From Girardia tigrina (taxonomy: Eukaryota), in the NCBI GenBank assembly GCA_001938485.1, contig MQRK01237023.1, forward strand, positions 1 to 54,791: a DNA stretch of 54,791 bases, in the 5' to 3' direction. The translations under genes and the position numbers were made by a program. A model generated the notes under the pieces. The model was not told where the DNA came from. It worked only from the letters and a program-made list of their open reading frames with translations, and did not search any database. Below, piece by piece: positions 580 through 52,136 of the stretch. Numbering within the stretch: the stretch's first letter is position 1; every line of letters starts with the position of its first letter.

Positions 580-1440
580 ATATAATAAAACAACTATTAA
601 TAAATCAAATACGTATTTAAAAATAAAATATTTTTAATGTGTTTTTTAAATATTTTAAAAATTAAAAATGATATAACAAAGAAAATCATAAAAAATTAAA
701 TACGTATGTAAAAATAAAATAAAATGTTTTTTTAATGTGTCTATTAAATATCTTAAAATTAAAAATTATATAATAAAGTAACTATTAAAAAATAAAATAT
801 TTTTTAATGTGTTTTTTAAACATTTTAAAAATTAAAAATGATATAATAAATTTTGGTGTTAAAAAATGAATATTGATGTTGCAACCACTTCTCACAGTGG
901 CAAAATGAAACTATTCGTAAAATATTCATATCTTACGATCTATTTAATATTTAAAACAAAACTTACAGTGTTATACTTTAGAAAGATGTCTCCATTTATG
1001 TACGAGTAAACTCAGCTCCGGCGCTGTATTATAAATAGGAGTATGACAAGTTTACTTGTCTTCCGTTTTACAATGTGTAAAAATTAGAAGCAAATAAAAA
1101 TAATAATAATAATAAAAATAGTAAGAAAATAAAATATTAATGTAAAGTAAAATAATATTAACAATAAATAAAAAATAATTATTAAAATAAATTTTAAATA
1201 AATAAAAATAATTATTAAATAAATTAAATAATTATTAAAATAAATAAAATAAATCTTAAATAAATAAAAATAATTATTAAATAAATTAAATAATTATTAA
1301 AATAAATCTTAAATAAATAAAAATAATTATTAAAAAAATTAAATAATTATTAAAATAAATAAAATAAATCTTAAATAAATAAAAATAATTATCACAATAA
1401 ATTTTAAATAAATTAAAATAATTATTAAATATAAAATATT
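580..1440. repeat. AT-rich tandem repeats (about 85-bp units at 580-850; AT minisatellite at 1140-1440)
   Basis: Repeated ttttaatgtgttttttaaa..attttaaaaattaaaaatgatataa and aaataaataaaaataattattaaa units. Confidence 0.7.
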
Positions 1441-1464
1441 TATCGAAAACAATTTGTCTCTCAC

Positions 1465-1898
1465 TCGATATTCATTTGTTTGGCGAATTCGCACTTCGAC
1501 AATTTCGACAACAGCAGAACGAACTTCCCAAAATCCTTGCCGGAGAAAATCAAGTCGGATGCGACCAAATCGGCCTCGCTGATCTGGAAGTGCTTGACGA
1601 CCAATTTGTTAAACAGCTTCAGATTCTCGATGCAGTCGAATTGCGATTCTCGCGGATTCGCAGTGAACTCGCGGTATTTCCCCAAATCGATCTCTTTGTT
1701 GCTAAGGACACTGAGGATCCTGAGCGGCAGCACTCCGTCAGAGATCTCGGGCATCAGGAACGACACTGGGTCGTGATTCTGGTAAATCGCGTCCGATTCA
1801 TCGATCAGCTTCAATCGCTTGATCCATTCGCGACATTCTTCCAATTCATATTGGGAATTCTTGTCCGTTATCATATCGATTGGCGTTTGTGATTTCAT
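1465..1898 (-). CDS. vav: Vav-type calponin-homology (CH) domain first exon (MKSQ...ECREWIK...ISDGVLPLRILSVL...SQFDCIENLKLF...DLIFSGKDFGKFVLLLSKLSK...NIE)
   Basis: Matches the Vav CH pattern (C..W; DGV.L..L; SQF.C..NI..F; DLF...DFGKV...LS.LS). ATG at 1898 (alternative 1874). Ends at a GA|gtgaga donor in phase 2. Confidence 0.85.
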
Positions 1899-2699
1899 AG
1901 GGGAAAAAACGGTCGAAAAAAAGTTTTCGTTTTCCAATTCGAATTAGCCGCGATAATTTTTTGTAATAGTAAATTAAATTGCGCGCGATTTCATTCAAAC
2001 AAAAACTGAATTTTTTCTGTTTGTCAATTATTTAATCCGATTTTCATTTGATAAATATGTAAATATATCTTACACAAAATTATCGCAAATTGTTAACGAA
2101 AAGTTTTTTTCGTTTTTTTTAATAGTAAAATTATTTTTTGTCAGATAAAATAACTTAGTGAATGTTAATTTGTTTGAGTGTTTTTTCAATTATGATAGCG
2201 CTAAAAAATTTTTTTTAAGTTGAAGAAATATTAAATTGAAAAAAATATTGAATAAAAAAAAATCATTTTTTGTTAAATTCATTGAATTTTGTGGTGAAAT
2301 GTTGATGCATTAATTTTTTCAAATAATGAACGGATGATTGCATCCTAACCTATACACGTTACCGGGGAACAGAAACAATTATGTTCTATCAGAGAAGAAT
2401 TCTTTACAATCGCCGTGCGCCTGTGACACGCAGCTAGTGAGGAGTTACCCTAATGATCACTTAGTAAGGTCTCACAAAAATATAGTCTGAGTCACTTAAT
2501 GATTGACTTTTTATTTGAAGGTACATGAGAAAATCAATAATAATTATGGGAGTATATGTTATGTGGGTATACACATGAGAAAAAGGTGGAATTTTATCAA
2601 CAGCTGCAGAGAGTGATAGAGAAGGAAAAGGTATTCACGATGAAAATAAGATGAAACTGCATGGGAGTTCTGAATTGTTTGTTGTTTTATATTTTGCAT

Positions 2700-2985
2700 G
2701 TTGTGTATTGATTTGGATTGTGTATTTTCTTTGATTCCTACTAATTGACTTTAATTTAATGTTAAAGTAAAAATATTTAAAATATTTTTCAAATGTAATA
2801 TTTAAATTATTAAATATAATATTTAATTTTTATAATGTTATTTAAAAATTTATTCTTTAATTGAAAAAATATGTAAATCTAATTTTAATCAATAAGAATT
2901 TTGATAATTAATAATTACTATAATAATTTTCTCATTTTTTCAAAAGAACTAGGATGACAGAAATATATTTGTTAGTCCTGTCACT
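2700..2985 (+). repeat. Dispersed repeat, second copy at about 19270-19550
   Basis: Shared tattttctttgattcctactaatt...ttaaagtaaaa..atttaaaat block and downstream colinearity. Confidence 0.7.
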
Positions 2986-3009
2986 ATAATTAATAATTAA
3001 ATAATTTAA

Positions 3010-5430
3010 CGATATCACAATTTGTATTTTAAAACACACAACCCCGTCCATTTATAGTTATTGTATCACGTCATCTGGGGAAATACGCAACAATACTATT
3101 ACACGACTTCTGAAGCTTTCTAATTGGTGANNNNNNNNNNNNNNNNNNNNNNNNNNNNNNNNNNNNNNNNNNNNNNNNNNNNNNNNNNNNNNNNNNNNNN
3201 NNNNNNNNNNNNNNNNNNNACATCACACACTACAACTCTCATCATACTCTCAGTAATTATCTCATAGGTTAATTATGTCATATATCTCTTCATCATCTTA
3301 CTCTTCGCACACATCAACATTTCCTAACTCACATTCCCCCCTCCGACGTGACTTCAGCCACTCTAAGTTTCGAACAATCTCTGTCCCATTATTGTTTCGA
3401 AGTCGATAATTTCGGTCGTGAATTCTCTCTATCACTTCGTATGGCCCGTCATACCTCTTTTCGTCTTTTTGTCGGATATCAATCCTCACATCCACTCTAT
3501 CTCTGATGTTAAACTCCCGTCTGGTAGGTGTTCCCTTTTCTCCATTTGTATACTGTCGTCTGTTGCCTTCTATTTCCGTAATTACTATCCCTGTTTCATC
3601 AAGTCCATTGTCTATGAAACGGTCCAAGTTCAATCGTCTTCCCAGTATAATTTCTGCTGGGCTGCTCTTTATCGTTTTTTGGAAGGTTGCGTTGATTGTA
3701 AATTCTATATGTGGGAGGCACTCTTCCCAATCCCGAAACAGTTTATCCTTTATACAACAATAAATCCAGTCTCTGATCATCCAGAATTGTCTTTCGATCT
3801 GTCCATTAGCCTGGTGATGGTAAGGGCTCGAATATTGAATCGAGAAGTTATATTTCTTCCCCAGCTGTTTGAAACTATCTAAAATGAAACATCTGCCATT
3901 ATCCACGTGAATTGTTCTTGGTGTTCCAAATTTTAATATCCAGTTTTCTGTTAGTGTTTTTATCAAAGTCCTGTCGTCCTGAGTTTTGACAGCCTTCAGT
4001 ACCATATATTTACTAAATTTGTCAATGATCGCTAAAATATATTTCTTCCCCGTCATTGTGGTCTTCATAGGCCCACAAAAATCGATATATAGCGACTCGA
4101 ATGGTTTTTCTGCTGTTAGTGTGCATTTCTCTTCTTTTGTCTTCTCCGTGAAAACCTTTCTTTCCTGGCATATCTCGCAGTTCCGGATCGTGTCCCTCAC
4201 TATGTCCTCAAACTGGTCCATTTCATAAAAAGGCTTTAGAAATTTGAAAATCTTCTGGGCCCCTATTAGTCTATTTAATGCTGTTGAAGATCGGCAGCTT
4301 AATCACAGAGAGATTGTTTTTTTGTTTGGCAAAATATAATCTGATTGACTATTTTTTTTTGCTCAATTTCCTTTTCAAAAAACTGTCACTTTGACCTGAA
4401 TGATAAATGTTCTCTTTCACTCACTGCTTCCTGCGTTTTGGTATTAATGAGAACGTAATTGTGATTTTCGACATTATTCAGATTATCATCCTGTAAATAG
4501 GGTGAATATTACGTAGAGTAGTTTGGACTGGTGTTAATATGTGATGATGCTCCAGTGGAAAAAGAAACAAAACTCGACGTTCACTATGACGTATTATTGT
4601 CGCAAAATTTGAATGAGAGTTAAAAATCTTTTCATAAATGTTCTTACATCTGCCAAATTTCTTACGAAATAAAAACCTTCGATTCACAAAAAACAAACGC
4701 AAAAAGACACAACCACACAAACACATCACACATCACAAACAGGAACAGCTATTCACAAACAGAAACCGATCAAATAAGACTCTGTACAGGCACAAGAGAA
4801 AGATAACGTCAAAGTCGTTCTAATCACACGGAGTTTGGGTATCACACACGTGGTGTATCCTCTTGAATTCTTCTTTCTCTGTGTTCGATAACCATATCAA
4901 CCCTATCCCGAAACTCTGTTGCGACGGCACGCCTCTGACCATATGAGGTTTTAAATTTTCCACTACCACGAACTTAACTTTCCTTATACATTTACCTACT
5001 TTACATTCGACATCTACTTCTCCTACAACAGTCATTGCTAACCCGTTTGCTACCGCCAATTTCTGAGTAGTCCTATAGATTGTCGCTGACTTAAAACGCG
5101 TTGCCGTCTCAGCTGCTATAACATTCATAGCCGCCGACGTGTTCAGAAAACATTCCAACCCTATTCCTTCTACTTCCACCGTTATGCTCGGTCTCCCTTT
5201 GAGCTTATTTTACGAAATATCTTCGTGTTCATCATCTATTGACATCATCTCTGGTTGTCCCCTATTGTTCTCTTTTCCAAAGCATTTCATCTATCTGGCG
5301 GTCCTTTCAGCTAACCCTTTATGTTTAAAAATATTATTTCTCTTCTTTTTTTACTGTTTATCGACTCTCCTTTATCCTCGTCTATCTCATCTCCCCAAAA
5401 TATATCTTCCTGAGTCTCTGTTCTCCCCTG
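3010..5430 (-). mobile_element. Ty3/gypsy LTR retrotransposon remnant A (gag tail, protease, integrase, PPT, 3' LTR; no RT/RNase H)
   Basis: Integrase ORF 4221-3298 (C..C zinc finger, YIDFCGP, VDNG, NGQIER, YDGPY). Protease-like 5179-4820 (FLNTSAAMNVI). PPT GGAGGGGGGAA precedes a TG at 3333, and the LTR runs into the gap at 3131-3219. Confidence 0.88.
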
Positions 5431-5739
5431 TTACAATTCGAAACTACATTACCTTTACTCGACAATCTACTTTTAAGTTTTATTTTATTATCATTAATAT
5501 TATAATTAATCGAAAAAAATTACTACGTTTATAAATAATACTTTTATAATTACTACTTTTATAATTATTACTTTTATAATTACTAATATGATAATTATCA
5601 CATGCATTATTTACATAAACCGGTTTAACATTAATAAAACGTAAGTTTTATGCCTGTTACAATTCGAAACTACAATACCTTTACTCGACAATCTACTTTT
5701 AAGTTTTATTTTATTATCATTAATATTATTATTAATCGA
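5427..5739 (+). repeat. Direct duplication of about 87 bp (5427-5513 and 5653-5739)
   Basis: cctgttacaattcgaaactaca.tacctttactcgacaatctacttttaag... occurs twice, 226 bp apart. Confidence 0.9.
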
Positions 5740-5824
5740 TAAAAGCGATCTATCCTGGAACAAAGTCCCGGCACGTCTAAGAGGTGCCGATCGTCGCCAC
5801 TCGGTCCGGCTCCCGGCACCCCAT

Positions 5825-5842
5825 TGGTGTCAGAAGTTGGAT
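5825..5842 (+). promoter_or_regulatory. Primer-binding site TGGTGTCAGAAGTTGGAT (tRNA-Leu-like)
   Basis: Follows the LTR end CACCCCA at 5823. Resembles the complement of a tRNA-Leu(CAA) 3' end; the match is from recall and has one mismatch. Confidence 0.7.
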
Positions 5843-8800
5843 TAACCGATCCAACACAGGTAAGCGATTTTGGATGTTTTTTGAAACGCGGTTGTTGCAA
5901 CACTTATACGCACTACAATCACCACGCATGTACCGTAATACTGACACGCCCCACATGAAACAAATTTACTTTCACACAGCACTCAACAATCAAATAAGCA
6001 CACACCACATCGAAAACACACTGAAAACAATAACTTTCACACACACAACAATAACAATAAACACTGAAGGGAACATTGTCACCATACTCCAATTGTCCAC
6101 CGACTGTTTTATCGAATACATCATAAATCATCTCACCAGCCAGTCGGGACATCCAGTCACACTTTATAAGCGGTTTAAACCTTTGCGCTCTCACCTCTCT
6201 TTCAGGCAGTAAGGGATCGTGACCGACATCACAATCACTTGCCACGTAGCACTTTTAGGCAGTGGTGATCGCGACGAGGGACCTGAACTTTTCTCTGAAA
6301 CCGGCATATCACAGCTGCATGAGACAATCGTAGTGCACTCATTGGCGTTACCGACGTTCCCGTTTTTTCTTGATGACAACGGATCACCTCGAACCTTGCT
6401 TGGATTAATGGAGTTCCGCCTGAAAACCGTGAGAAGCCAACATGTGCGGTTTCAACACAACACAGCCGCATTACCGGTCGATCAACTGCGGGCAATAAAC
6501 AAAGAACTGCTGCTGATCATGTCACATGACCGACCATACGATTAGTTGTGCCACCACTTAATGAAGGCATACTCGCAGTCTTTCGATGCGCACTTCTAGC
6601 AATATTTCAGGACTCAGATGATGGGAAACATGAGACCCACTCAGTTCCTGAACAAGTTTACAACCGATCTGCATGCGCTCAACCCAGCACTGGTCAATGA
6701 TGATGCAGATCAGCGACTGTTGCGGAAGCTCTTCCTCCAAGCTCTATGGGACACACAACAGGCCATACTGGCCGCGTCGGACAATTTACCACTCGTGGTC
6801 ATGATCGCGGACAAAATCGCCGAAACCGTTGGGCACGACAAGTGCCACTGCTAACCATCATGTCGGCAACCAGCGACAGCAGCCACACACCGAGCTCGAG
6901 AAAATCACAAGACGCACACTTCACGGAGGTAACCACACTGTCTAAACAGATAGCGGCTCTTCAGGCCAGTCTGACCATTATCAACCGCGACCGTGATTAC
7001 TCACCAGTCCAAACCGAGCCGCTCAGCAATGCAGTGACCCGGGGATCGCGGATCCATACTGCACGGATGACAGTTGTCCGATGTCCTAGAGGGGCAGCAA
7101 CCCCGCTATCCGGTTCATTCATGAAGGTCACTGTTATCCTGTGCTATTTTCACCGTCGATTCGGCAAAAAAGCTAAGAAATGCGCACCCGGATGCACGAA
7201 CCACAAATGACCGACGTGCGCATCTGGTACGCCAAATTCAGTACGAATGCTAAGGGTTGTGCTCTCAGTTGCTTCCACTTCAAGAGTAAAAAATTAGTAC
7301 CGCCCATCGTCCCGGTGGCAAGAGAGGTGGACAGAAATAACTGCTGCGGCATCTTCACATCTGAGACCAGAGTGAAAGCGCCGATCAATAGCGACCTTCG
7401 CTTTCTTGTCGCGACCGGATCCGCCGTTTCTATTATTCCTCAAACGTTCATGTCTCACTTGAAGCGACGCCCGCAGTACATCAGCGCCGCTAACAGCACC
7501 ACCATCCACACGTACGGCACTGTACAGCTGACGATCACATTGCACCAATTATGAAATCAATTCACTTGGACATTCACCACTGCCGGGGTGACACAACCCA
7601 TTCTCGGAGCAAATTTTTTGGAACACTTCAAGATCTTGGTCGACTGCAGCACTCAAACTCTCGTGGCCAAGGTACATCACAATATCGACCACAACTACCG
7701 ACAGGAATCAGCAGTCCCGCCGTCGACCACGACAGAACGTTCGATCAACACCCTGGATGCCGACACCACCATACAGATTCGCGTGCAATTTCCAGGCCTG
7801 CTGGATGACACGAATGCCGACAAGCCTACAACCTGTGTATCAATCAACACACGTAATCTCCACCACGAACTGTGCTCCAGTTCATCATGGCGTAGGAAAC
7901 TGTCACAAGCGATCCGAACACAAACTGCAGAAGAATTCCGGAAATTGGAATCAGCGTTTTTCAGGGTGTACAGTATTATCGTCACTTGACCTGAGTAAGG
8001 CGTACCACCAGATCCCAATGGATGAGGCATCAATCCAAAAAACCGCCGTCACTACGCCATTCGGTCTATATGAGTTGTTGCGTATGCCGTCGTAAACATT
8101 CCAGAGGCACATTGACATAGTTTTTAATGGGCTCAACAACGAGCCGCATATGTCAATGACATCATTGTTTCCTCCAGGAACCATGATGAACACAAAAAAC
8201 ACTTATTCGAAGTTCTGGCAAGGTTTCAGGATCACAACCTTCTCATTAAGTTCGACAAATGTCAATTCTTCAGCCAAATGTGGAGATCCTTGGCAACAAC
8301 ATTTCCAGAGACGGGGTCAGGCCACTGGATACTAGAATAAAAGTCATTCGAGACTTTCCTTTTCTAGAGACCGTCACGGCTATCCGTAGTTTTTTAGGTG
8401 TGGTTAATTATGTCAGATGATTCATACCAAACCTGTCCGGAACACTTGCTCCACTTACAACATTTTATACTGGTCCGAAACAATCCAAAATAGCCTGGTC
8501 ACGCCAAGCTGTCATTGCGTTCCAACAGGTCAAGGAGGATATGCTCGCTACAAAATCGTTACATTTTCCAGACAGCAATCTCCGTTAACCTTGAAAACCG
8601 GTGCATCGAACATTGTCATCAGTGCAGTGCTCATGCAGATTCGTGGAGACAAACCAGAACCGTTAGGGTTCTTTTCACACAAGCTGTCTCCACCGCAGAC
8701 GCAGTACTCGACCTTCGACCGCGATCTATTAGGGTTGTACCTGTCCGTTCGTCACTTCGAGCATTTCATCATCGCCCAGCAGACTACTGTTTACATGGAT

Positions 8801-10533
8801 CATAAACCCCTAACGTTCTACCTAACGATGAAAAATCCATCTCCACGACAACAACACCATTTCAGTTACCTATCCCAGTTCAACATCAACGTACAACATA
8901 TCAAAGGAGCCAACAATGTGGTGGGAGATTGCCTTTCTAGAGCTGACATAATGAGTCTTGACTTCGAGCCGTTGTTCACCACAGAGGTCTTGGAGCAGTA
9001 TCCACCCACATGGAAAGATCTCAGCTACTTCAAAATCCCACCAATCAAAAAAGGAAATGTGTGTTATGACACGTCGCTCTCGGGGTGCCTCTGACCAGTG
9101 CTCAGTCAGGATCTACGGGCTCAGGCCTTTCAGGCAATTTACAACTCATCACACCCTGACTCAAAGGTCACCTACCAGCTGATAAAAAACAAAATCATTT
9201 GGCCGTTCATGCAGAAAGACATTACTCTTTGGTCTCGCACCTGTTTCCATTGCTAGAAGAATAAGGTCATGAAGGACACCAAACTGCCAATACTGACGTT
9301 CCACACCGGCAGCCGTTTTGACAAGGACATTGTGGGACCACTTCCTATGTCACATGGCTACCAGTACATCCTTACCACCCTAGATAGGAACACAAGGTGG
9401 CCCGAGGCGTTCCCACTCAGATCACTGGCCACTGATACTATTATTGAAACATTTGTCAACCACTGGATTTCTTGTTTCGGCATTCGGAAGAAGATCATAA
9501 CAGATCAGGAGCGACAATTCGAGGCAGAGTTATTCAGCGACCTCACTAAACGATTGGGCATCCAGAAAATCATGACCATCGCGTACCACCCGCAAACCAA
9601 CGGCCTGATAGAACGATTCCACCGTACCCTGAAAAACTCATTCAGAACGTTAGCAGAGAAACATGATTGGGCGAAGCAGTTACCACTAATTTTGCAAGGC
9701 TGGAGAAACATTCCCCATCGCAGATATGGTACCTTGCCCGTAGAAATGCTCTTCGGCTTCAAACACCTCACTAAACAACGAACTATTCTTCAATGAGGCA
9801 CCAAGAAACGATGAGATGTTAATGGCGGCGCGTGAACACTTTTTGCAAGCAGACAGAACATCACCAAACCCAGAGAGACAGCATATCTTCGTCCCGAAAG
9901 AACTTGCGACCTCAAAGTTCGTCTGGCTCTAAAAGGAAACACGAACTCTCTAGAAAGTCGATACACTGGACCACATAAGCTTCTAACCATCGCACTAGAT
10001 AACAACACAGCTTAAATTTTGGTACATGACAAGGAGATCACCGTGAATATTTGCAAGCTCAAGCCTTGCCTGAACTTGGAGATTCCATCCAGGACGAAAC
10101 CAAGCCAAAGCCTGACAACAAAAACTTCCCCAAAAAGAAAACTACAACGTTAAAGCGTCCATTAGCCACGAAGACAACAAGAAAACCATCTCAAAGGAAG
10201 ATCATACGACCGGCACGTTTCGTGACAACACCAAGTAACGCGTAACGACCTCACGCCCTCGACACAACTACAACACACGCTCACAACATCACACAGCAAC
10301 ACATCACATAAAAAACACACACCACCACAACAACAACATCACGCAATAACTACTGCACACAATCACACCCCCACAACACAACGCATCACACGCAAACAGA
10401 CACACCAACATGAACAACACAACACTGCAATACACTGCGTTTCGAGGAATATTCATTCTCGCACCCCTCCTTCTTCCAGCAGCCCTCCCCAATGCAACAA
10501 CCACCATCCTCTGCATTCTTCGGCGGGGGCTCA

Positions 10534-11049
10534 TGTGGTGATAGAAAATCAAACAAAAAAACATGACAGTTATGTTTTAATAATATTTGATGGCACAATT
10601 TTAAATGAAATAAATAATTTTGTGTTTTGAATAAAAATTATGAACGTTCCTTTTTATATATTTTCGATCAGTTTTGAATATTAATCGTCGTTCGGATGTT
10701 TTTACCCGATGCTGATATTGACGGAAACCGCACTATGCGGCACAGGCTCCAATCGGTCGGATCCCGTGCGCCATCACCTAGCACAATTTGGCGACGCATG
10801 ACGGATCCCCACAGTTTCGCTGGTCGCACACTGGGGCCGTATTTCGACAAACGGAGCGGTATCGGTGTNNNNNNNNCCGCCGCGAGCCGATTGCGGGACC
10901 GCCGTCCCATGGCAAATTGACCGATGATCACCGGACCCGATCGGCAACAAGACGTCGTTGAACTGACGCGGCGATCTCTCCGGGATTCAAGTCCCGGCAC
11001 GTCTAAGAGGTGCCGGCCGTCACCACTCGGTCCGGCTGACGGCACCCCA
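10534..11049 (+). repeat. 3' LTR of element B (TGTGGTG...CACCCCA)
   Basis: Starts with TG after the PPT and ends with CA. Its last 80 or so bp match 5745-5823. Confidence 0.85.
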
Positions 11050-11749
11050 GAGACATTAGCAAAAATTTATCAATTTAGCGATATGTCAAATTAAGAAAGT
11101 TTTGGTGAGAATTGTTCAAAAGACAATTCAAATTGTGATAAAAATAAATGTGTGAAAACCCATTTTGGTGTTCTTAATAGTCAATATTAAATTTTTATTC
11201 TCCTTTTCATATATTCTTTAAACCAATATGCACTTAGATGTCGAATTCACAGTTGTACAATATATAATTTTTTTCTATGCGTTGATTAAGCGATGTACTT
11301 AAAATATAAGTTCAAGTGTAAAAATGAAAGTGAACATAAGTCTAATTTCTAAATCTCTTTTATAGTTTTTAGTTAGTTTGGTTTTATTTTTATTTGTTTG
11401 ACTTATTTCTTTTATTAATTAATTATTATTATGCATATTTCTCAATTAAATAATATGATTTTATAGATAGTTTATATATATAATTAATACCAATTTTACT
11501 TTAAATTTGTTAAATATTTTCCAATTTACTAAAAACATAAATATTTTATTTATATTATTTTTTATTCATATAAACAAAATATATTAGTTAACATTATAAC
11601 CCTAACATTTGTAAACTTTCATTTTTTATATATTCTTATTTTTTAATATTTTTATGACTGAATTTTTATTAAAACTAAATAACTTTTTTTCATTTTTGAA
11701 ATGCAATAAAATTTTATATTTTTATACTACTTTTCCTTCATCAGAATAC

Positions 11750-12325
11750 GGTTAGGTATGGAAAGCGTTGGTGTGGTTCCTTTTAGAAGAAATATCACAA
11801 AGTTCTCTTGATATTTTAAATAATAAAATCTCCAACTATTTTTTTAATAAAGTTAAAACAACTTTGGGTATGAAAGCTGATCTTAGTTCCAAAAAAGTCT
11901 TAGTTCAAAAATTCCAGATAGATTAATTCGATTATGAAGTACAAGATACGAGGAAAATCTGTAAGCGAAGCTTCTGTGGAACGAAATTTTAAAATTATCA
12001 AAAGGATTCACACATCTTTAAGAGCCAGTTTAAAGGAAGATATTTTTGAAGATTTGCTTTTCATTCGATATAATCATCCTAATAAAACGTTAAAGATGAT
12101 GATGCTGATGAAAATTCTGTCAAAAATGAATATGAATCTTTAAGTGATTAATAAAATTTTGTCTTTTCTATATTCCTTTATTTGTTTTTCTTAATGTATT
12201 AATATATTATATAAAATGTATTAAATAGTATATAATATATATTATATAACGATTAATGAAATCAGAGCCCGTACCGTGCCACCACATCCGATGGCCGTAA
12301 AATCAGCCCGTGTCCATACGGGTCA
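11750..12325 (+). mobile_element. hAT transposase 3' fragment (dimerisation domain) plus subterminal motifs
   Basis: SEASVERNFK...HTSLRASL......LLFIRYN (hATC motif); ccgtaccgtg / cccgtg subterminal repeats. Confidence 0.7.
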
Positions 12326-12600
12326 CAAGTGTGAATTGTACATTGGAGATTCAAATTGTCACTTCCTTACTAGAATTACTAAACATACTCAGTTAAGTAG
12401 AATAATTCGATTAAGGATAATATGTTGAAATATCATAGAAATTGTAGGAAAGGACATGACAGCAATTTTCGGGTTTTAATCAAAAACTTTGATCATACTT
12501 ATGAAAGGATAATTACTGAAGCACTGATAATTAATTTCTGAAACCTAGTTAAAACGTGCAAAGTGAATCATCCAGTCATATTAGAGTATTTTAATGTAAG
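12325..12600 (+). mobile_element. Penelope-like GIY-YIG endonuclease remnant
   Basis: CELYIGDSNCHFLTRITKH ... NFRVL ... RIITEALI, heavily decayed. Confidence 0.5.
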
Positions 12601-12855
12601 AGATGAATGACATGTTGATATTCTAACTACACAGGCAATTATTAGAATTCAGAACTGATGATGTCAAAAAGGCTAAACATTTTTTTAGTTAATAAAACTA
12701 TAAAATGGCGTTATTCTCTTTGATTATTAAATCTGTTATTAATTAATCAAAATGTCGAATCAAAGTAAAATGCATTAAATAATAATAAATAAAAATAAGT
12801 TATTATTTTTCAAAAAGTTATAAATAAATTTGAAAACATGTACAACAACAAAAAT

Positions 12856-12861
12856 TTTATT
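12856..12861 (-). promoter_or_regulatory. Candidate polyadenylation signal AATAAA
   Basis: AATAAA on the minus strand about 30 nt after the vav stop. Weak evidence in AT-rich DNA. Confidence 0.35.
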
Positions 12862-12888
12862 CTTAAAAAATATCAATTAAAGACCAGT

Positions 12889-12942
12889 TTAATATGATTT
12901 ATTGTGCGTTCTCTTCACATATTTCTTTGGAATGTACCCACG
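12889..12942 (-). CDS. vav: Vav last exon (RGYIPKKYVKRTHNKSY*)
   Basis: SH3 G..P..YV motif, tttag acceptor, TAA stop. Confidence 0.88.
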   Translation of the reverse strand, partial: RGYIPKKYVKRTHNKSY

Positions 12943-15468
12943 CTAAATAAATTGAAATAATATTAATAATTTAAAAGTAAAATTTATATACAAGGGATAA
13001 AAAGAAGACAGTTGCATATTAATTATAATTAAAAACATAAAGATTTTAAAACATTTACAAAAGTTTAAAATTGTTTTTTAAACAGAAGAAATCTTAAAAT
13101 TGAGCTAATTTTTAAAATAAAAGTTGGTTGTGGTATAACAGAGCTCGGGCAGTAACCAGACTGCAGATCTGTAGCGTTGGTGGAGTGTCTCTAGTTGATA
13201 GAGGGAACTTAATTTTATCTCATTGTTAGATCTAATCTCATCTCTCGTGACGAATGTTCACTGATCTTAATTGACGATTTTCATGCATTTTTTATATCAT
13301 TAATATTGTCTTCCCTTTCTCTCTTGTTGTGTATCACGAGTTTCGCTTCGCCTTCGTCGTCTTTTTTTCTTTGATGGTGATTTCATTCGGTTCAAATCAT
13401 CTCACCGGGACCGATGTCATGAATTAGTGAGATGAACGAACGCGGGATGAATGAACTTGGGAGGAATGGGTTGGAATGAACGAACGGGATACCATTTTTT
13501 TTAATCTCACACTAATTTCATTGTGGATATTAAACTCTTTCCCGATTTTTCAACTGAAGTTTTTTCAACCAAACTGAAGTTGAAAAATCGGGAAAGAGTT
13601 TAATATCCACAATGAAATTAGTGTGAGATTAAAAAAAAGGTATCCCGTTCGTTCATTCCAACCCATTCCTCCCAAGTTCATTCATCCCGCGTTCGTTCAT
13701 CCCCGTTTGGTCATCCTACATTCGTTTATACCAAATTTATTTTAAAGTACCAGCTTTGGTAGATTTACCTTTTTTATTTTTTTAAATTTATTTTTCTTCT
13801 TTTTTTTGTGTAAGATAACATATAAACATGACATTTAAATATAAAATAGTTACACATACATCCTAGAATTTAATTGAAAAAACTTATTTATCTTATAAAA
13901 GAAAGTGAAGTTTAGCAGAGTACAAAAGTGAGCAGGTAAAAGTGTTGGGTATAGGTACAGGTATTATATTTATTTAATAAAAGATCTTTATTTACTGATT
14001 ACTTTTATTCCCAATTTAGTAATTTATTAATTTAGAATTTGTATTTCTTCAAAACCAAATCAAAAGACAACAATTTATCAATATAATAATATTTTAAATC
14101 TATCATAATACAAATAATAAAACTTCACATAAAGAAAGAAACTATAAAAAGATTTATTTAAATAAGCTCATTGACCTTAACATATACCTTATTTAACGTT
14201 TTTTGAGCCGAATCTGTAGGTTGAACTTACACTTCTTAACTCTTGATTATTCTTAATAATTCAACTACTAACATAGATTTAACCCTACGATTAATATACT
14301 GAATAGTTAAGTTCAAATAGGAATCTATTGGAACTTAAAGAAAAATTAAAATCTTGGAAAAAATTAATTAAATATAATAACCTATATTCAATCAAATTAA
14401 ATTATTAAATATAATAAGCTATATCCTTTCCCTATATCCAACACTTCTATCTGCTCACCTTTTTACTCTGCTAAACTTCACTTTCTTTTAGAAGATAAAT
14501 AAGTTTTTTTCAATTAAATTCTAGGATGTATGTGTGTAACTATTTTGTATTTAAATGTCATATTTATATGTTATCTTACACAAAAAAGAAAAAAACAAAA
14601 AAAATAAATTAAAAAAAACAAAAAAGGTAAATTTACCAAAGCTGGTCCTTTAAATTTGGGATAAATGAACGCGGGATGAACGAACGCAGTATGGACGAAC
14701 GGGGATGAACGAACGCGGGATGAACGAACGTGGGATGAACGAACACCAAACCAAGAAAAAAGACAAAGAAGCAATTAATGAAAGAAAATACGAATATGAC
14801 AAGCGTTAGATGTTGATAAATATTAAAAGAGATTTAATAATGGAAAAAAATAAATTATCTTTATTGATGAAAAGGGTTTGATGTCATGTAGAGTTTCGAC
14901 TCTCAAAACTCTTGTGATTTTTAAGTTTTAAAATTTAATCAGATGACGACATTGATTAAAGCTTATTAAAAAAAGGACGAATTTCCTATTATTTTGTGTC
15001 CCAGGATGAGTAAAAATCGATGGAAAGTCTTTCGAGGAAAACCAAATAAAAATGTTTTCCTTTAGGTGAAAGAGACTTTTAATTATATAACTAGCAAAAG
15101 ACCCGTTATATATGAAGGGTGAGCTAAATTTTCGTCTTTGAAAGTTTCTGTTTTATTTATTAAATCGAAATTTTTATCATTTATAATTTCGAATTCGGTT
15201 TTGATACAACAGTCGGTTGACTAGTACGGTTATCGGTCGATTTCGTCGGCCTCCCGGCATCTTTCCGCAAAAGCGCCGAACTGACAAAACCGCCTTGGTG
15301 TATGCTATCCAGATTGAACACGTCTTTATTTGGATTCACACCGGTTCTTCCTCCATTTTATATTTTAGACAAATATAATACATAAAATCAATTTTTATTT
15401 AATGATCTACTTACAATTTTAAGTAGATCATAAAGAGTGACCAACAAACTAACTTACAAACATTTTAG

Positions 15469-15515
<47 letters not shown>

Positions 15516-39500: not shown

Positions 39501-42500
39501 ACCATACCAAAGATATGCGTGTTATGCTGAAAATAGAACAATTAAAGCACATTTGAAATTCACATTATACCTTTTTTGAAAATTGTCGATATTTGCAAGG
39601 CAATTTTCGTCAAGGTCAATGTCCGTGACGAATTTCTCTAGTTCTATCATTGCCTGGTGGGCATCGACGAGCCCACTATAATCTGGGTGTTCTTTGCTCG
39701 TCTTTGACAATAACTTCTAATTAACATAGCGTTTATTAACATAATTTATACAATAACGATAAAACGATTTACTTCTAATAATAAATGATAATTTATTATT
39801 CGCTTTTTTGGTAATAACATCAAATTTACTAAATTGCATTTTAAGACTTCTTTAGATGAGTATTTCTAAATTCATATATATATGAAATAATGAAGATTAC
39901 ACCTTAGACAATAAATTTAAATAAATTAAGTAGATATTCGTACAAACAAGAAATACAAAATCAAAGACCTCAGTATTAGTCAGTAAACAATAGTATTCTT
40001 CCACAAGTTCTTGACCAGCAATTTGGATGGATTGCAGTGACGAACAATATTGTCCGTAGATTGGCAAATATGTATTTATCTCCAGAAATATTGAGTGCAG
40101 TTTACGACAAAATGTAGTTGAATGAGTTTCACATATTTGAACATGATGCAATTTTTCATAAATTCCTTCATGTGTTTTCAAAATTTGCTTAATAGAAATA
40201 TTTATATATTTTTCATTTCAAATTACCCAATTACTTCAATATATAGAAATACATGATCCAGTCTAAGTTTAGGAATGACGTTCTCCAATGGATTTCTATA
40301 ATTCTAAGAAGATATAATTCATTAAATCAAAACTATGTGCAATATGAAATTAATGTTTGTAGCATTATATCCAGAAATTAATGTTAAAATATCTCTCAAA
40401 CTAATATCACTTGTACAGAGTGCTAAATCTGACATAAAAATAATATATTAGTTCAATAATATTCGATGTACAGTGTACATATAGATATAAAGTGTTAAAG
40501 AGTGTTGAGAGAATGATCGAAACTGTCATAATAATAAAGATTGTAAAAATGTGAGATCTCTTAAAACCCAAAAACAAACCATATTAAAATAATAATTATC
40601 GATTATGATCAATTAGGATCAAAATATGTACTACAATAGTTTTTTTAATTTTCTTTGTCAAATATTTAATAAAATAATATCAAATTAATGTTTACGAGAC
40701 TAAAAATAAAATTTAATTTGTAATTTTTAAGGTAAAATACTTTTCTAACAGAAAATTTGAAGTGATGAGTGTACATTGTGCACAGTCTTTTGACTTACAA
40801 TCCAATGGCGATTATTAATTAAACAAAAGTAAATTCAGAATATATCTTAATGTGTTTTTTCACACAATTAATTTCAAATTTGTTTTTGGAGATTTGCGAT
40901 TTGACTCTGGCTTTGAATTGTGAATTTTGATTTGTTGTGGGAGGGAGACAAGAATACAACAGAGCTGTTGATAGAACAGACGAATTTCATACGCTGGTCA
41001 TAAAGTATAGATTTTCTGATATTTCTATTATAACACTTGCAATATAATGTATTTGTGATCTAAACGTAAATTGCAATAGCCTAACTATTAAAGACTTCAA
41101 CTCTATTGTCGTTCGTAAATTTCTGTAGATCAGTAATTGAGTAACAAAAGTCCTAACAAAATTCACATTTACAACCAATGCAATACGTACTTTACATGGA
41201 AGATTTGAAGCACATCGTAAAAATGTACATTGAATATTTTCAACCCCTGCACTCAACATGTTAAGACAGCTCAATGAATAGTACAAAAATGTCCATGTTA
41301 TAGTTGTGAGGAATATTTTAAATTTGGTATGTTGAAATTGGTTTGTTGAATTTTGTATGTTGAGTTTAGTATTTGGAAATGTGTTTCTCCCACCCAGATG
41401 GAAAATTGATATTTTAGANNNNNNNNNNNNNNNNNNNNNNNNNNNNNNNNNNNNNNNNNNNNNNNNNNNNNNNNNNNNNNNNNNNNNNNNNNNNNNNNNN
41501 NNNNNNNNNNNNNNNNNNNNNNNNNNNNNNNNNNNNNNNNNNNNNNNNNNNNNNNNNNNNNNNNNNNNNNNNNNNNNNNNNNNNNNNNNNNNNNNNNNNN
41601 NNNNNNNNNNNNNNNNNNNNNNNNNNNNNNNNNNAATAAAAATTAATACTAAAACTACAAAATTGAATTTTAAAAATAAAATCAGAAAATAATGAAAAAA
41701 TTTGTTCGAATAATTGTTTATTAACAAACATTAATAAAAAATTATCAATTTAGAACGATGTCGAATGACGAGAGTTTCGCTGAGAGTTGTCCAAAAGACA
41801 ATTCTGATTGTAATGAATATAAAAGTTTGAAAAGCCATGTTGGTGTTCTTAATAATTACGAATTAAAATTCTATACTTTTTTTAATAAAAAAATATAAAG
41901 TGAATTTATTAAAATTTTGCACAAAGATTTTGTTGCATCTTTTATTAAATTTCAATTTTATTGTGCATTTAAATTTATCTGTTTCTCAATTAAACTTCCC
42001 AATTCTATACAATAGCATTTTTCATTTCGTTTTCATAATAGTTTTAAAAATTACTTTTCGATTTAATAAAATAATATTTTGAAAATAGAATTTAAAATCG
42101 CATTTTCGTTTAATTTAACAACTATTAAATTACCCCTTTTTTACATAAAAATAAAATTATATTTCCATTAATAATTATGTTTTCCAAAATAAAATTAAAA
42201 TCGCATTTTCATTTAAGTCGATTTAATTGTTTTAAAATTATATTTTGATTCCAATTACAATTTCCGAAAAAAATTATAATTACATTTTTAATTTACTTCG
42301 ATTTAATCGTGTAAAATAAAGTTACAAGAAATATAGTTTAGTTTATTTTCATTTCGCAAATAAAATATTAAACTTTATATTACTTTTGATTTTATTTCAA
42401 TTAAATATTTTAATCAAAATTGAAAATAGCTTTTTTACTTTGTAGTAAATCTTTGCACAAATCTTTTAATAAACCTACCGTAAAATTTATTTTATTTTTT

Positions 42501-45500: not shown

Positions 45501-47575
45501 ATGTTTCCGTATAGTATCCTCGTTTATTACATGGTGTGGATTGACCTGATGATGAGATTGTTTTCTCTAAATGTGTCATCTTTGTATTTATCCCATGTAC
45601 AAAGATTTTACTTTGCGATGTACATTGTTCGGGATTCAATTAATTTTCTTATTTATATTTCAAATTAATTATCTATATATATATATATATATNNNNNNNN
45701 NNNNNNNNNNNNNNNNNNNNNNNNNNNNNNNNNNNNNNNNNNATATATATATATATACGAAATTGAAATGGATCCTGCGCTCCCTCATTTATTGTAAAAA
45801 AATGCAAAACTTTACTTTTATTTTTACTTATTTTTGTAAATGTTTAATCTGAAAATCGTTTTTTTGATGGTTTGTATCGATTTAAAAATATTGAATGAGA
45901 AAAAATTTGTAACAAGTTGTTTAAATGAATAAAAGAATGATAAATGAAAGCTGAAAATTATGAAAGAAAATAAAGCGATTAAAATATTGATCTTCAATAT
46001 TGATTTACGACGGCGATGTATTTTAAAATGGGCCCAGCAAACCGAGGAAAGTTCCCTTCGCAACCCTGTCACCTCCGTCCGATACTCGGGGCAACCTGAG
46101 TGTCGGGCGGAACACTAATATTGTAACGAAGTATTAAGTATATATTCAATACATACAAATTATAAGAAGAATTCAGACATGGATGCACAGTTCTCTCTTC
46201 CATTATTACTTTGTATAGCCACCTTTTGCATTATTCACTCCTGCCAATCGGCGTGGCATTGACGCGATTAGATTGCCAGTGAGTTCGGGGCTGATCTCCT
46301 GTACCCAAAGACGTTGAATCATGCAAAGTAGGTCATTATATGATGTGGGGGCATGCTTAGCAACCTTTTCTTTCACTATTCTCTAACAATTTTCAATCGG
46401 CGATAAATCAGATGAGTTGCCAGGACATGGACCCTGAACGGCGATCTAGTTTGCTTCCAACCAGACTTTGTCTAGTCGCGATTGATAGAGTGGAGCCCTG
46501 TCATGTTGTAAATAATTGCACTGACGCATTTGAAGGAAGCGTTGAACCTAATTGCGAAGAATGCCGTTGTACACATGCGAAGTGATAGTAGTTCCCTTGG
46601 GACAGAACCAAAGACTGCAGCGACCTCTGGCAGCAATTGCAAGCCAAATCATAACTTTCGGCGCACTCCGCAAAGTGGGAACAGTGACCTGTGGCCTTAA
46701 GCGGTGACCAGGCGGCCAACGCACCGTGCGGATCCATGTGCCTTCTTGATAGATTGTGGTTTTATCACTGAACATCCCCGAATGCCGTTGATCCACTCTC
46801 CAATATTGGTCAGCTTTTGCAAACGCGAGAGTATCAAGAATATTCTTCAACGATAAACGTGGTTTCTTGGCAGGCTTGTACGATCGAAAGCCTCCTTCAA
46901 CCAGACGTCAACGAATGGTTCGTGCGCTAGGCAATTTATCAATGTTAGCTGGAAGATCAGCTTCTATTGCACGGGAACCAGCCAATGAATTGTCTTGCAG
47001 GATCTCAAAATGGCTCGATCTGTCACCTTGCTTGTGATACGCAGCCTTCCACTGCGTTTCGTGTAGGTAAAGGCGCCGGTGGCTTGATGAAGACGGAGAG
47101 TGTCGGCTATTATTGAATCACAGGGCAATTGCATGGTTCGAGACTCCAGTGTCGTGTAAAGCAACGATTTATGCCCTTAGAGTGGCTAAAATTTGGTTAC
47201 CAGTCATGTCGGAATAGTCACAAATACTTGACAAAAATACTTTTATATATTATAATAGCATAGTGGGTATGCTACTAAAGCTGTATTATTATTGGATGTT
47301 GGTTAAGAATATTATTTACATGCACTTACACACACGCATGTAGATATTAATTTTCTTTAAAATTCAAGGGTGGTCGGTGAATTATGACCACGACTGTATA
47401 TATATATATATATATATATANNNNNNNNNNNNNNNNNNNNNNNNNNNNNNNNNNNNNNNNNNNNNNNNNNTATATATTACAAGCCTAATTGTCTAAATAT
47501 AACAGAAGATAAATAAAAAAATCAATAAAAAAATAAATAATTTTTATTTATCTTTTGTTCAGACAATTAGACATG

Positions 47576-47620
<45 letters not shown>

Positions 47621-50600: not shown

Positions 50601-52136
50601 CAGACGACTTTTTCATTGAAAACATTTATTTTATAATTTACACTTTTTATTTGTACAGATTTAATACGTCAAAACAAGCGATTATCTATTCGCAATTTTA
50701 ATTAATAATCATAACACAATTTGTTTTAAAGTTTGTTAATTAATAGTTTTTATTTAAATTATTGGGGAACCCTAAAGTCCATGTTAAGTTTTAAATTAAT
50801 TTGTTAAAAACTATTTTAATAAAATAACTAACCTCAGGAACGCACTGAACAGGAAGATCGATACTATTCACAGAATCTATTTTGAATCTAAAAAAGGTTT
50901 TCGAATATCCCGCCTCGATCTTAAATAAATAAATTATTAATTATGATGCATAGATAAATTTGTATATAATATGTTTATATATATGCTGTTTTTAGTGATT
51001 ATTTGATTCTACTCTATAAAGGAGCTTATTGGTTATGTGGTTTCCTGAATAATATAATGGATTGACTGCAGTATAGTTCAAGTCAACCTGTTCGCTTCCG
51101 GGCTTCATCCCCAAGTGGGGGGAGCATAATGCTGAGCCGTGTCTCAGGATTGCTGATTATCCGAAGACAATTATGATTTAATATCTTCAGATTTTTCAAT
51201 TTTAATATCGTTTTCATTGCTTGATGATTTGTTTAAATTGCGAATGTATGTCGACGTTGTCCAATTTAATTTTAACGGTTCACATTTTTAAATTAATTTT
51301 CATGATTTAATTTTTATAAGAAAATCTAAAATATTTTTGACTTACAATGAAATAGCAATTATTATTTAAACAAAAGTAAATTCAGAATATATTTTAACGT
51401 GTTTTTTCACACAATTAATTTCAAATTTGTCTTTGAAGAGATTTACGATTTGACTCTGGCTTTGAATTGTGAATTTTGAGTTGTTGTGGGAGGGAGACAA
51501 GAATACAACAGAGCTGTTGATAGAATATACGAATTTCATACGCTGGTTATAATGTATAGGTTTTCTGATTTTCTATTATAACCCTTGCAATATAATATAT
51601 TTGTGATCTAATCGTAAATTGCAATAGCCTAACTATTAAAGACTTCAACTTTATTGTCGTTCGTAAATTTCTGCAGATCAGTAATTGAGTAACAAAAGTC
51701 CTAACTAAATTCACATTTACAACCAATGCAATACGTACTTTACATAGAAGATATGAAGCACATCGTAAAAATATACAACGAGTATTTTCAACCCCTGCAC
51801 TCTACATGTTAATAACTCAATGAATAGTACAAAAATATCCCTGTTATAGTGGAAGCAGATTTTGAATAACCAAAGTACTAAATACTGTTTTAACAGAGGC
51901 AATAATATTGTATTCAGCTCTTCATAATGCGAGGGATGATATTATTATATTACTTTATAATAAACAAAGGTTTTTCATAAAAAATAATTTAGTTTAATAT
52001 TGAAATTAATTATTATGATATAAAAGAAATAATTTTATAGTAAAAATAAACGAAATGACTCACTGAATCAATAGAGTATAGAGAACTCGAAAATGAACCA
52101 TCTACATTGTCTTCAGTCGGCAATGGAATACATTCT
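12889..52136 (-). CDS. vav: Vav-family Rho/Rac GEF-like gene, exon 2 to last exon (linker-DH-PH-C1-SH2-SH3), multi-exon
   Basis: About 17 GT-AG exons chained by hand with matching phases give the domain order DH-PH-C1-SH2-SH3, which is diagnostic of Vav. Many segments align to Vav1 motifs (HLLL, LFF..W..FE.A, FQGY.C, GTFLIR, GYIP..YV). One mid-PH junction between 39265 and 28908 is unresolved. Confidence 0.9.
13431..13701. repeat. Near-perfect palindrome, arms 13431-13555 and 13578-13701, 22-nt spacer
   Basis: The arms are reverse complements over about 125 bp, with a difference only in the T/A run next to the TIR end. Confidence 0.95.
13639..14752. mobile_element. Foldback / MULE-like non-autonomous element with long TIRs of about 340 bp
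   Basis: 13639 to about 13985 is the reverse complement of about 14395-14752. GG/CC termini and 15-bp subterminal repeats (gatgaacgaacgcgg). TSD unclear. Confidence 0.75.
15090..15520 (-). mobile_element. Helitron-like non-autonomous element with a (TA)n tract
   Basis: Minus-strand 3' end has an acccttcat..ataacgggt hairpin followed by CTAG. Shares atctacttacaatt.taagta and agacaaatatat blocks with 17229-17461. Confidence 0.55.
15702..15850 (-). CDS. vav: Vav C-terminal SH3 exon (VLAIRDNDSSDRANVLHFRKNDVIKIISENTSNSDWLLGVLNNA)
   Basis: SH3 pattern A..D....L.F.K.D.I.I......W..G. The phase 1 start matches the preceding donor. Confidence 0.85.
16755..18480 (-). mobile_element. MULE/Mutator DNA transposon (internally deleted)
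   Basis: TIRs built of gcgactttaccgcg repeats. Exact 9-bp TSD aaaaataaa (16746-16754 / 18481-18489). Transposase ORF 18055-17462 (LAFVP, YF..TY, WNVY, TNNAIENWH) and C-terminus ILDYLRGVAHN at about 17225-17190. Confidence 0.92.
17229..17461 (-). mobile_element. Helitron-like insertion inside the MULE transposase
   Basis: Perfect hairpin acccgtcat-gt-atgacgggt before a minus-strand CTAG, plus a (GTCA)n microsatellite. It splits the MULE ORF. Confidence 0.65.
19736..20272 (-). CDS. vav: Vav SH2 exons 20272-20238, 20093-19886, 19838-19736
   Basis: YSKESWFVGELDRDGANEMLKITPPGTFLIRLS...FALSV...RHIEI...FSDLRELVKFFSLHPL: the W, alphaA Arg, FLVR motif and betaD His are present. Phases chain correctly. 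Confidence 0.92.
20321..23417 (-). mobile_element. hAT transposon (ZMYM1/DUF4371-type transposase), full length and decayed
   Basis: CAGTAGCGC / GTGCCACTG TIRs and an exact 8-bp TSD atgttaag. Motifs: TTF-type zinc finger (WF..WKWLDY...CYFC...GFCNWKK...HE...H), ISDGTAD..GREQLS, GQCFD.GANMAG, FVHCANH.LDL, CPTR*, PATSATSESSFSELRRLKT. Confidence 0.95.
25750..25994 (-). CDS. vav: Vav C1 (zinc finger) exons 25994-25861 and 25814-25750
   Basis: NNQYPPNYHENGYQFTMTTFENFAKCHFCERYLNGLFFQGYQCQKTKIISHGKC aligns to Vav YP....NGH.F.M..F....C..C...L.G.FYQGY.C..C....H..C. 46-nt intron. Confidence 0.9.
26150..26555 (-). mobile_element. LTR retrotransposon gag N-terminal fragment
   Basis: LPEKY...DIETF...YF......QEIFVRGLLSHELLPV, homologous to TQEILVIELLSHELLPIY at about 35560. 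Confidence 0.55.
27161..28425. mobile_element. Possible pogo/Tigger-like MITE remnants surrounding the LTR copy
   Basis: TA|CAGTGTACTCTCGATTAACCG start and repeated tgg(c/t)gg(c/t)t(a/g)a(g/t)agaaac motifs. No clean matching end found. Confidence 0.3.
27540..27970 (-). repeat. Diverged copy of the element-B LTR family
   Basis: Begins tgtggtgat..aa.at.aaacaaaaaaacat like 10534 and is colinear with 10534 to about 10860, apart from a 63-nt indel. Confidence 0.85.
28675..28908 (-). CDS. vav: Vav PH C-terminal exons 28908-28837 and 28790-28675 (...IKLFFESERDCQNWFRAFEQAI)
   Basis: Contains the PH terminal helix Trp and aligns to Vav ELFFKT..KKKWMEQFEMAI. The exons are separated by a 46-nt GT-AG intron. 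Confidence 0.85.
29510..29620 (+). repeat. Short dispersed repeat family (copies at about 190-300 +, 29510-29620 +, 34700-34860 -, 41330-41417 -, 54490-54610 -)
   Basis: Shared core ccatctgg.t.ggagag...aaat..aaa..caacatac. 29510-29620 is nearly the reverse complement of 54490-54610. Confidence 0.7.
29830..32379 (+). mobile_element. Chapaev3/CMC-like DNA transposon, decayed transposase
   Basis: MV*REPNDHVADCYFC, QSDLNDLVRDL.LSK, EWRLFMDTSK..LKAV, CADLKIV, PLHIELELMRNFVKAM, GIFVGPNIRK, KIHSLHSHLDFF..NLG...DQGERFHQDI..ME. Right end ...TTTTCCAGTG. The superfamily assignment is from recall. Confidence 0.75.
29880..30668 (+). mobile_element. MULE deletion derivative nested in the Chapaev-like transposase
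   Basis: TIR cacgtcaatttgtcgtggtaaattggtcggg at both ends. Exact 9-bp TSD aacctaaca (29871-29879 / 30669-30677). Carries the MULE C-terminus YLRGIAHNF. Confidence 0.9.
32780..33342 (-). mobile_element. mariner element 5' fragment (HTH region)
   Basis: TIR TATTGGGTTGGCCAAAAAGTCATTGCG; peptide IRHVLLHYFRKGKTTVQAHKKICFVYG...LKDAPRSGR...ITALIKSNPHMTTR. Confidence 0.85.
33247..33482 (+). repeat. Exact 118-bp tandem duplication that includes the mariner TIR
   Basis: 33247-33364 is repeated at 33365-33482. Confidence 0.92.
33780..34070 (-). mobile_element. Penelope-like GIY-YIG fragment (copy 1)
   Basis: RHICERIHEHSRR...SNIAGH..HC...NFKIL......WERVTCEALYIRSLDPKINVQ, homologous to 43150-43430. Confidence 0.7.
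35530..36290 (+). mobile_element. LTR retrotransposon gag remnant with a degenerate CCHC knuckle
   Basis: ESVEEYF...KEEIKRCILIHG...; YA*RETGHVRREC knuckle at about 36040-36080. Confidence 0.65.
37988..38718 (+). repeat. Tandem repeat, 338/339-bp unit, about 2.2 copies
   Basis: caaattttatcacaactgaatatttcaatgacaaattgcattgcgctcttatc starts at 37988, 38326 and 38665. The units are nearly identical. Confidence 0.92.
39265..39526 (-). CDS. vav: Vav DH-PH junction / PH N-terminal micro-exons (39526-39508 ITRISL; about 39362-39333 ELHRLKIILG; 39295 to about 39265 ITRTQVYLFE)
   Basis: GT-AG bounded 19-31 nt exons. FQKSI matches Vav FQ.SI, and QVYLFE matches the PH motif R.vFLF. The boundaries are ambiguous. 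Confidence 0.5.
39571..40303 (-). CDS. vav: Vav DH exons 40303-40235, 40187-39969, 39865-39773, 39716-39571
   Basis: Spliced peptide NYRNPLE..VFLYIE/QILKTH..IYGQYCSSL../..NLMLLPKKRIINYHLLLE/KLLSKTSKEHPDY..AM..L..FVTD..IDNFQKS. Introns of 47, 103 and 56 nt, all GT-AG, phases consistent. Confidence 0.9.
40793..41310 (+). repeat. Dispersed repeat of about 520 bp (copy 1; copy 2 at about 51338-51850)
   Basis: Colinear and highly similar to 51338-51850 in the same orientation. Unclassified. Confidence 0.9.
43150..43430 (-). mobile_element. Penelope-like GIY-YIG fragment (copy 2)
   Basis: ETSRHLCKRIQEHSR...SNIAGH..HC...HFKIL...E.LYIRSLDPKINVQ. Confidence 0.7.
43442..43618 (+). repeat. Tandem duplication of about 85 bp
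   Basis: atgaa.atttttaatatatcgaattat..agagttta.tatatgtaaaaattagttttt... occurs twice. Confidence 0.85.
44089..44184 (-). CDS. vav: Vav exon, DH helix 1 / CR1 (NRDHCIAEIVSGELNFVKSIRELIN)
   Basis: tttcag acceptor and gtaaga donor, 96 nt. Aligns to the DH start R..CL.EI..TE..Y...L. Confidence 0.85.
44301..44748. mobile_element. Solo LTR
   Basis: TGTAGTGA...TCACAACA inverted termini, flanked by catga/cataa (5-bp TSD, 1 mismatch). GC-richer than its flanks. Confidence 0.7.
46150..47396 (-). mobile_element. Tc1-like transposon, decayed
   Basis: TIR CAGTCGTGGTCATAATT next to (TA)n. Motifs RSGRLRITSKVTDRAI, RTIR*RL, KPAKKPRLS, FSDK, KVMIW, PGNSSDLSPIEN. Confidence 0.9.
48130..49071 (+). mobile_element. 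Second Tc1-like transposon, decayed, with an internal inversion
   Basis: RTIRRRLHE, MAWGCF, FQQD on the plus strand; CHT..IKSWF...IPVMPW on the minus strand; EEW on the plus strand. Right end gatacttttgcgatggcggag|TA. Confidence 0.8.
49300..49760 (+). mobile_element. Penelope-like reverse transcriptase remnant
   Basis: SFEVSSLYTSVPID (consensus SFDV.SLYTNVP), YTRYEDDIFLL (RYVDD), FSIE...FLDI. Confidence 0.75.
50833..50919 (-). CDS. vav: Vav exon, linker (IEAGYSKTFFRFKIDSVNSIDLPVQCVPE)
   Basis: 87-nt phase 0/0 open exon with ttaag acceptor and gttagt donor; a GC-richer island in AT-rich flanks. No motif support. Confidence 0.6.
51338..51850 (+). repeat. Dispersed repeat of about 520 bp (copy 2)
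   Basis: Colinear with 40793-41310. The minus-strand RDIFVLF is reminiscent of RT DDIF, but this is weak. Confidence 0.9.
52064..52136 (-). CDS. vav: Vav exon, post-CH linker (ECIPLPTEDNVDGSFSSSLYSIDS)
   Basis: catag acceptor and gtgagt donor; 73 nt (1+72). Resembles the Vav post-CH segment I.PFP.E....Y..L. Confidence 0.7.

Follow-up and report, generated by a model that had tools for sequence, protein, structure and literature searches.

An apparently permuted vav locus in the planarian Girardia tigrina is probably made up of head-to-tail vav copies cut by the edges of the sequence window

Genes with trans-spliced or permuted parts exist, including mod(mdg4) of Drosophila and the permuted tRNA genes of red algae. 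When the edge of a draft scaffold falls within tandem duplicates, the 3' part of one copy is followed by the 5' part of the next, and the outcome is an apparent circular permutation. Here, we analyze a locus in a 54,791 nt stretch of Girardia tigrina DNA (contig MQRK01237023.1, positions 1–54,791; hereafter, the window), in which a Vav-type gene body is followed on the minus strand by a Vav-type CH exon. The locus resembles mod(mdg4) and the permuted tRNA genes only in its out-of-order appearance in the DNA: no junction joining the out-of-order parts turned up in the contigs, and the junction that was observed leads elsewhere. In contrast to plain cut tandem duplicates, 8 kb of retrotransposon cluster, including two gaps, stand between the parts in the window, and we infer their adjacency across it.

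For the Vav family itself, the accessible portion of a review (PMC6562523) states that invertebrates have a single vav gene with a constant order of domains from CH to ZF, and describes ‘exotic’ invertebrate forms with foreign domains added at the ends and atypical DH-PH, including a case in the flatworm Macrostomum lignano. These ‘exotic’ proteins and the window locus both depart from the standard domain plan; however, neither a second C1 nor a doubled cassette is named among the ‘exotic’ forms in that portion of the review (PMC6562523), whereas the window has two C1 domains. Compared to the Vav proteins of other flatworms (Rodentolepis nana, P0003; Schistocephalus solidus VAV2, P0005; Cichlidogyrus casuarinus, P0006), to which its CH exon is 29–38% identical, the locus shares the order DH, PH, C1, SH2, SH3 and a post-CH GFP motif in register, and its body has one SH3 only, as in many invertebrate Vav forms. 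It differs from them in having two C1 domains within 55 kb and a CH exon behind a complete 3' end. A literature search over titles and abstract openings returned no description of a planarian vav gene; supplementary tables may list transcripts.

The window, part of a draft assembly, is AT-rich animal DNA interrupted by seven N gaps, and its 2860 six-frame open reading frames were scanned with our own Vav HMM. The body gene (hereafter, gene A) lies on the minus strand in the order DH, PH, C1, SH2, SH3, and stop, with an SH2 and then an SH3 of Vav type. Five DH (RhoGEF) exons, supported by HMM, tblastn, and splice sites (44184–44089, 40303–40235, 40187–39969, 39865–39773, and 39716–39571), match HMM positions 197–397 in order. 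The PH exons (34366–28675, inner boundaries approximate) start at 34366 and continue with 29126–29069, an exon from 28908 onward, and 28790–28675, within which 28790–28677 matches Pfam PH (E 0.0025). The following C1 domain (C1 no. 2; HMM 44.7 bits) comprises exons 25994–25861 and 25814–25750 with a 46 nt intron, and scores 56.9 bits with its second exon versus 41.9 bits without it. Exons from 44184 to 25750 thus match HMM positions 197–564 in order, showing that a DH-PH-C1 cassette is present. Three SH2 exons (20272–20238, 20093–19886, and 19838–19736; Pfam SH2 E 8e-12 for 20092–19886) and an SH3 exon with splice sites (15850–15702; Pfam SH3 E 4e-4) precede the last exon (12942–12841), which holds the end of SH3, the stop codon at 12891–12889, and an AATAAA at 12861–12856. 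The window yielded neither a CH nor an acidic exon for gene A. An open acidic stretch of 52 nt with AG/GT ends (YSSTNNSSEEYDEDSFG) is found at 43993–43942 on the minus strand, 96 nt behind the first DH exon; it resembles the Vav acidic region, has a phase unsuited to its place, and may be due to chance.

The window also contains several repeats and decayed transposons. The last intron includes a near-perfect 270 nt palindrome (13431–13701, 96%) within a larger inverted-repeat element. Decayed DNA transposons in introns include a Tc1-like element (45743–47420) between two TA-flanked gaps, as well as a hAT-like element and two transposase remnants (20500–23400, 30700–32060, and 32780–33150), which were named from the look of their reading frames. 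Local repeats of 339 nt x 2.2 (37984–38717, 97%) and 118 nt x 2 (33246–33484, 100%, possibly an assembly echo) were found, together with a 517 nt pair (40788–41304 and 51335–51850, 93%) whose members are 10.5 kb apart.

The CH exon occupies 1898–1465 on the minus strand (144 codons plus 2 nt; Pfam CH E 3.4e-7) and has a phase-2 donor at 1464 (GA/gtgaga), 11.0 kb downstream of the stop codon of gene A, as the original prediction had described. That prediction also saw no CH exon at 52137–54791, which agrees with our searches: no second CH exon was found anywhere in the window using the HMM over all 2860 reading frames or tblastn with the two closest CH relatives. The nearest relatives of the exon are Vav proteins. 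Domains were scanned in 26 of 48 HMMER matches, 22 of which carry CH and RhoGEF (16 of these also SH2); the remainder consists of two CH-only proteins, P0001 without a family at the cut-off used, and one unrelated protein. The two closest relatives, P0001 and P0053, are CH-only gene calls (61–62% identity) that end at the same exon boundary, and the next named matches include tapeworm and monogenean Vav proteins. In a CH tree the window exon, which is far more diverged than the CH of flatworm Vav, shares one long branch with P0001 and P0053 (100/100) among the flatworm rows, with weak placement. A feature search of the ESM Atlas ranked general CH clusters (myophilin, transgelin) first and did not single out Vav. 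Word-indexed protein searches, which are weak tests, gave no full-length close relative among 523 longer candidates of the CH exon, one CH-only protein among 23 candidates of similar length, and no hit (0/6) for the two C1 exons aligned to such candidates. The CH exon is likely the first coding exon of a downstream vav copy (hereafter, gene B).

To follow the exon into transcripts, we used contigs from four of 21 candidate sequencing runs, aligned to 1432–13400 of the window. Two runs from separate studies are RNA-like, X5 (RNA by guess) and X7 (unlabelled), and their contigs were treated as spliced because their exit from the CH exon falls exactly at the GT donor. Record 16 of X5 and record 24 of X7 (2700 or 2702 nt) match 1465–1822 with zero and two differences, depart from the CH exon precisely at the 1465 donor, and go on with identical loose letters, which adjoin the alignment break, a placement confirmed on two other rows. 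These letters read ...QMNIEGFPRQNQSI, giving the junction peptide IEGFPRQNQSI. The splice partner of 1465 is therefore an exon outside the window: a 30-mer of the partner exon gave no match within the window at three mismatches, the best site having 12 mismatches and position 52136 having 20. Neither the CH protein nor the loose 30-mer had a match in metagenome scans. The join from 1465 to EGFPRQNQSI adds 13.4 bits in an HMM built from 22 Vav proteins, and its GF stands at the offset used by 12 of these 22 homologues; six of the nine partner-exon codons have G or C in third position. There is no contig break at the 1465 donor in the CH contigs of X5 and X7, so a second junction at this donor is absent or rare in these runs, with the proviso that contigs drop rare variants and rare splice forms could thus be invisible. 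The CH contigs of both runs begin exactly at 1822, and one short contig continues to 1933 or 1909; position 1822–1823 is a shared branch, from either an allele or an alternative 5' end, the other arm of which is not among the listed contigs.

The same contigs bear on whether the CH exon belongs to gene A. The original prediction had joined 1465 to 52136, regarded as the start of the most upstream body exon, and had presented the CH exon as the body's own first exon in an apparently circularly permuted order. This junction was looked for in the contigs of X5 and X7, and both join 1465 elsewhere. Position 52136 is not an exon start either, because it is located 22 nt inside an exon (52158–52064, minus strand; AG acceptor at 52159, phase-0 end; NIICHRECIPLPTED) of a C1 domain (C1 no. 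1) whose first exon is further upstream at 52339–52206 (tblastn E 1.4e-7; HMM 29 bits). The Pfam C1_1 match of this first exon (E 1.2e-4) is below the family cut-off, being that of half a domain, and adding the exon at 52158–52064 lifts the score of C1 no. 1 from 28.3 to 44.8 bits. Its first exon and that of C1 no. 2 are both 134 nt long with the same phases and 36% protein identity, and the introns that follow measure 47 and 46 nt, respectively. What had been taken for an acceptor (ag/A GAA TGT) is CAT AGA GAA TGT, the His-Arg-Glu-Cys within an exon that reads HRECIP, and in the alignment this HREC falls on the Vav zinc ligands HxxC. By BLASTP the sequence 52156–52064 alone gave no alignment to P0005; a score was obtained only in combination with the C1 exon before it. 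A PH-tail exon candidate at 52426–52377 was dropped, its phase being incompatible with the C1 acceptor. The Vav likeness of the peptide that had been joined across 1465 and 52136 is ascribed to chance, since the join adds only 1.2 to 2.0 bits to the CH score (1.2 bits in the 22-protein HMM).

A truly permuted or circular locus, in which CH is connected to the body by trans-splicing or read-around transcription, is thus highly improbable. Only the exon order on the scaffold speaks for it, and its proposed acceptor is internal to a C1 exon, the 1465 donor is joined to another exon with no contig break there, the body transcript ends near 12841 behind AATAAA, and the two window ends do not overlap, sharing only a dispersed repeat. 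It also presumed single-copy exons that make one complete gene; instead, the window has two C1 domains and lacks exon 2, and CH-like sequence is not single-copy. Specifically, both DNA-like runs hold a CH-exon-like sequence that is ~90% identical, on account of which the CH exon is not regarded as single-copy. This sequence has 28–29 differences over 1663–1951/1957 and a higher contig depth than the window's form (depth is not read as copy number); it was not seen in the RNA-like runs X5 and X7, and could be a paralogue, only a fragment, or a haplotype that has diverged. No other RNA-like contig in X5 or X7 is at least 88% alike on the CH exon; with two copies, the own first exon of gene A would have to be more distant, which counts against that reading.

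Using the contigs at the 3' end, we found that the last exon of gene A is carried by a separate contig (X5 record 23, 861 nt, depth 17.8). It covers 12841–12942 with zero differences, ends nine letters later, and places the transcript end of gene A near 12841, 15 nt past AATAAA. The X5 bin with the last exon has a mean depth of 6.53, too low to accommodate the 11.2 that record 16 by itself would contribute if the exon were part of it; record 16 therefore lacks the last exon of the window, and in X5 the depth of this exon reaches no more than 0.58 of that of the CH contig. Record 16 must then be the complete message of a different vav gene, or else the 5' portion of a single long message. The contig ends of X5 and X7 differ by 2 nt, which is not a multiple of three and so suits a true transcript end. 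Codon usage also differs sharply: GC3 is 0.68 (98/144) in the CH exon versus 0.30 (176/586) in 15 body exons, with 0.48 in the highest body exon. GC-rich first exons can occur within one gene. Length difference, depth, and GC3 are each weak, and combined they lean toward two genes.

These numbers need to be weighed against an alternative in which there is one long vav gene with a doubled cassette (CH-Ac-DH-PH-C1-DH-PH-C1-SH2-SH3), the piece 1–3130 having been put at the wrong end through an LTR, and exon 2 to the first PH lying outside the window. Of the mis-scaffolding first proposed, only this form survives. It draws on the donor at 52064 and the acceptor at 44184, which are both phase 0 and place C1 no. 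1 in phase with the first DH exon, and on the 7.9 kb between them, in which our Vav HMM showed no SH2 or SH3 exon. Records 16 and 23 of X5 total ~3.5 kb, which also fits one long gene with two cassettes: about 3.2 kb of this lies past the CH exon, near the sum of a typical CH-to-C1 stretch (374–425 aa in 19 of 20 homologues reaching C1) and the 2052 nt modelled here. The position of the gap within a high-copy LTR, the lack of a further RNA-like contig of at least 88% likeness on the CH exon, and the single vav gene reported for invertebrates in the accessible part of the review (PMC6562523) point the same way. However, the mis-join would have to happen to strike the same gene, the 2 nt difference in contig ends, the depth ratio, and the GC3 difference all count against one message, and none of the 22 Vav homologues scanned has two RhoGEF or two C1 stretches. 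Taken together, we consider a single long gene unlikely.

The DNA between the two vav parts was examined for evidence of their order. It consists of a nested, decayed LTR-retrotransposon cluster (3062–11052, end points read by eye) with rve, aspartyl protease, and RT-RNaseH matches and two gaps (3131–3219 and 10869–10876), and its summed contig depth exceeds that of the flanks by a factor of tens to hundreds. The gap at 3131–3219 lies inside an LTR, as the original prediction had noted, and the element there lacks a 5' counterpart of this LTR within the window. In an X2 contig, 23 letters connect 3130 with 3220, and five contigs of X1 are similar; because these contigs continue across, both sides of the gap belong to one high-copy LTR family, although such a bridge is compatible with either a true or a false join and neither proves nor disproves it. 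No unique DNA contig spans the cluster among the joints listed. We nevertheless infer that true adjacency of two copies is simpler, because a chance mis-join at an LTR would seldom bring in another vav piece with matching orientation. Within the cluster, 250 nt (4319–4569) are ~91% alike to part of a 3.27 kb contig that occurs in X5 as well as X7; this is probably a repeat carried by some other transcript.

A second pair of gaps (47421–47470 and 45693–45742) has TA runs on its flanks and the Tc1-like element between. The scaffold might be a disordered series of fragments from several vav copies, with breaks at either of these gaps as well as in the LTR, with C1 no. 1 coming from gene B or from a third copy. 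Consistent with this are the TA flanks around the element, the missing CH and acidic exons of gene A in the window, and the absence of an SH2 behind C1 no. 1; but a gap that TA runs flank on either side is usually a short interruption of one microsatellite, and scrambling of this kind is quite improbable. There are two ways to account for C1 no. 1: gene A carries it as an additional C1, which may be where a second cassette ends, or it is part of a third copy that was cut at a TA-flanked gap. Whether C1 no. 1 is spliced to the DH exon of gene A is a roughly even call. A fuller version, with a cluster of at least two vav genes and a gene A that has an extra C1 directly ahead of DH, most simply as the tail of a second, diverged DH-PH-C1 cassette, is put forward tentatively.

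The best explanation of the locus is that head-to-tail vav copies are cut by the window edges, which is the tandem-paralog option of the original prediction and, in our judgment, probably correct: the CH exon likely starts a second copy behind the gene that ends at 12889. Both copies would then be expressed through ordinary transcription and cis-splicing, with the poly(A) site of gene A near 12841. Gene B would have its own promoter near 1930–2000 (contigs reach 1933) and would run out past position 1, where its partner exon would lie in cis, provided that the LTR gaps join sequences that are genuine neighbours. The second CH-like sequence and the two C1 domains in the window indicate that vav sequence is not single-copy; on the other side, the statement of one vav gene per invertebrate, as it stands in the accessible part of the review (PMC6562523), sets a prior against tandem copies.

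A permuted protein-coding gene that needs trans-splicing would have been striking; it is absent here, and the locus is a case of a window edge and an in-frame internal AG faking a permutation. From their domains, the products would be Rho/Rac exchange factors as other Vav proteins, presumably regulated by tyrosine kinases (PMC6562523). If C1 no. 1 does belong to gene A, a C1 would occupy the position usually held by the inhibitory CH-acidic region, and the way in which the enzyme is activated would be altered. The locus suggests that an invertebrate has two or more diverged vav units, compared to the single vav gene given in the accessible portion of the review (PMC6562523).
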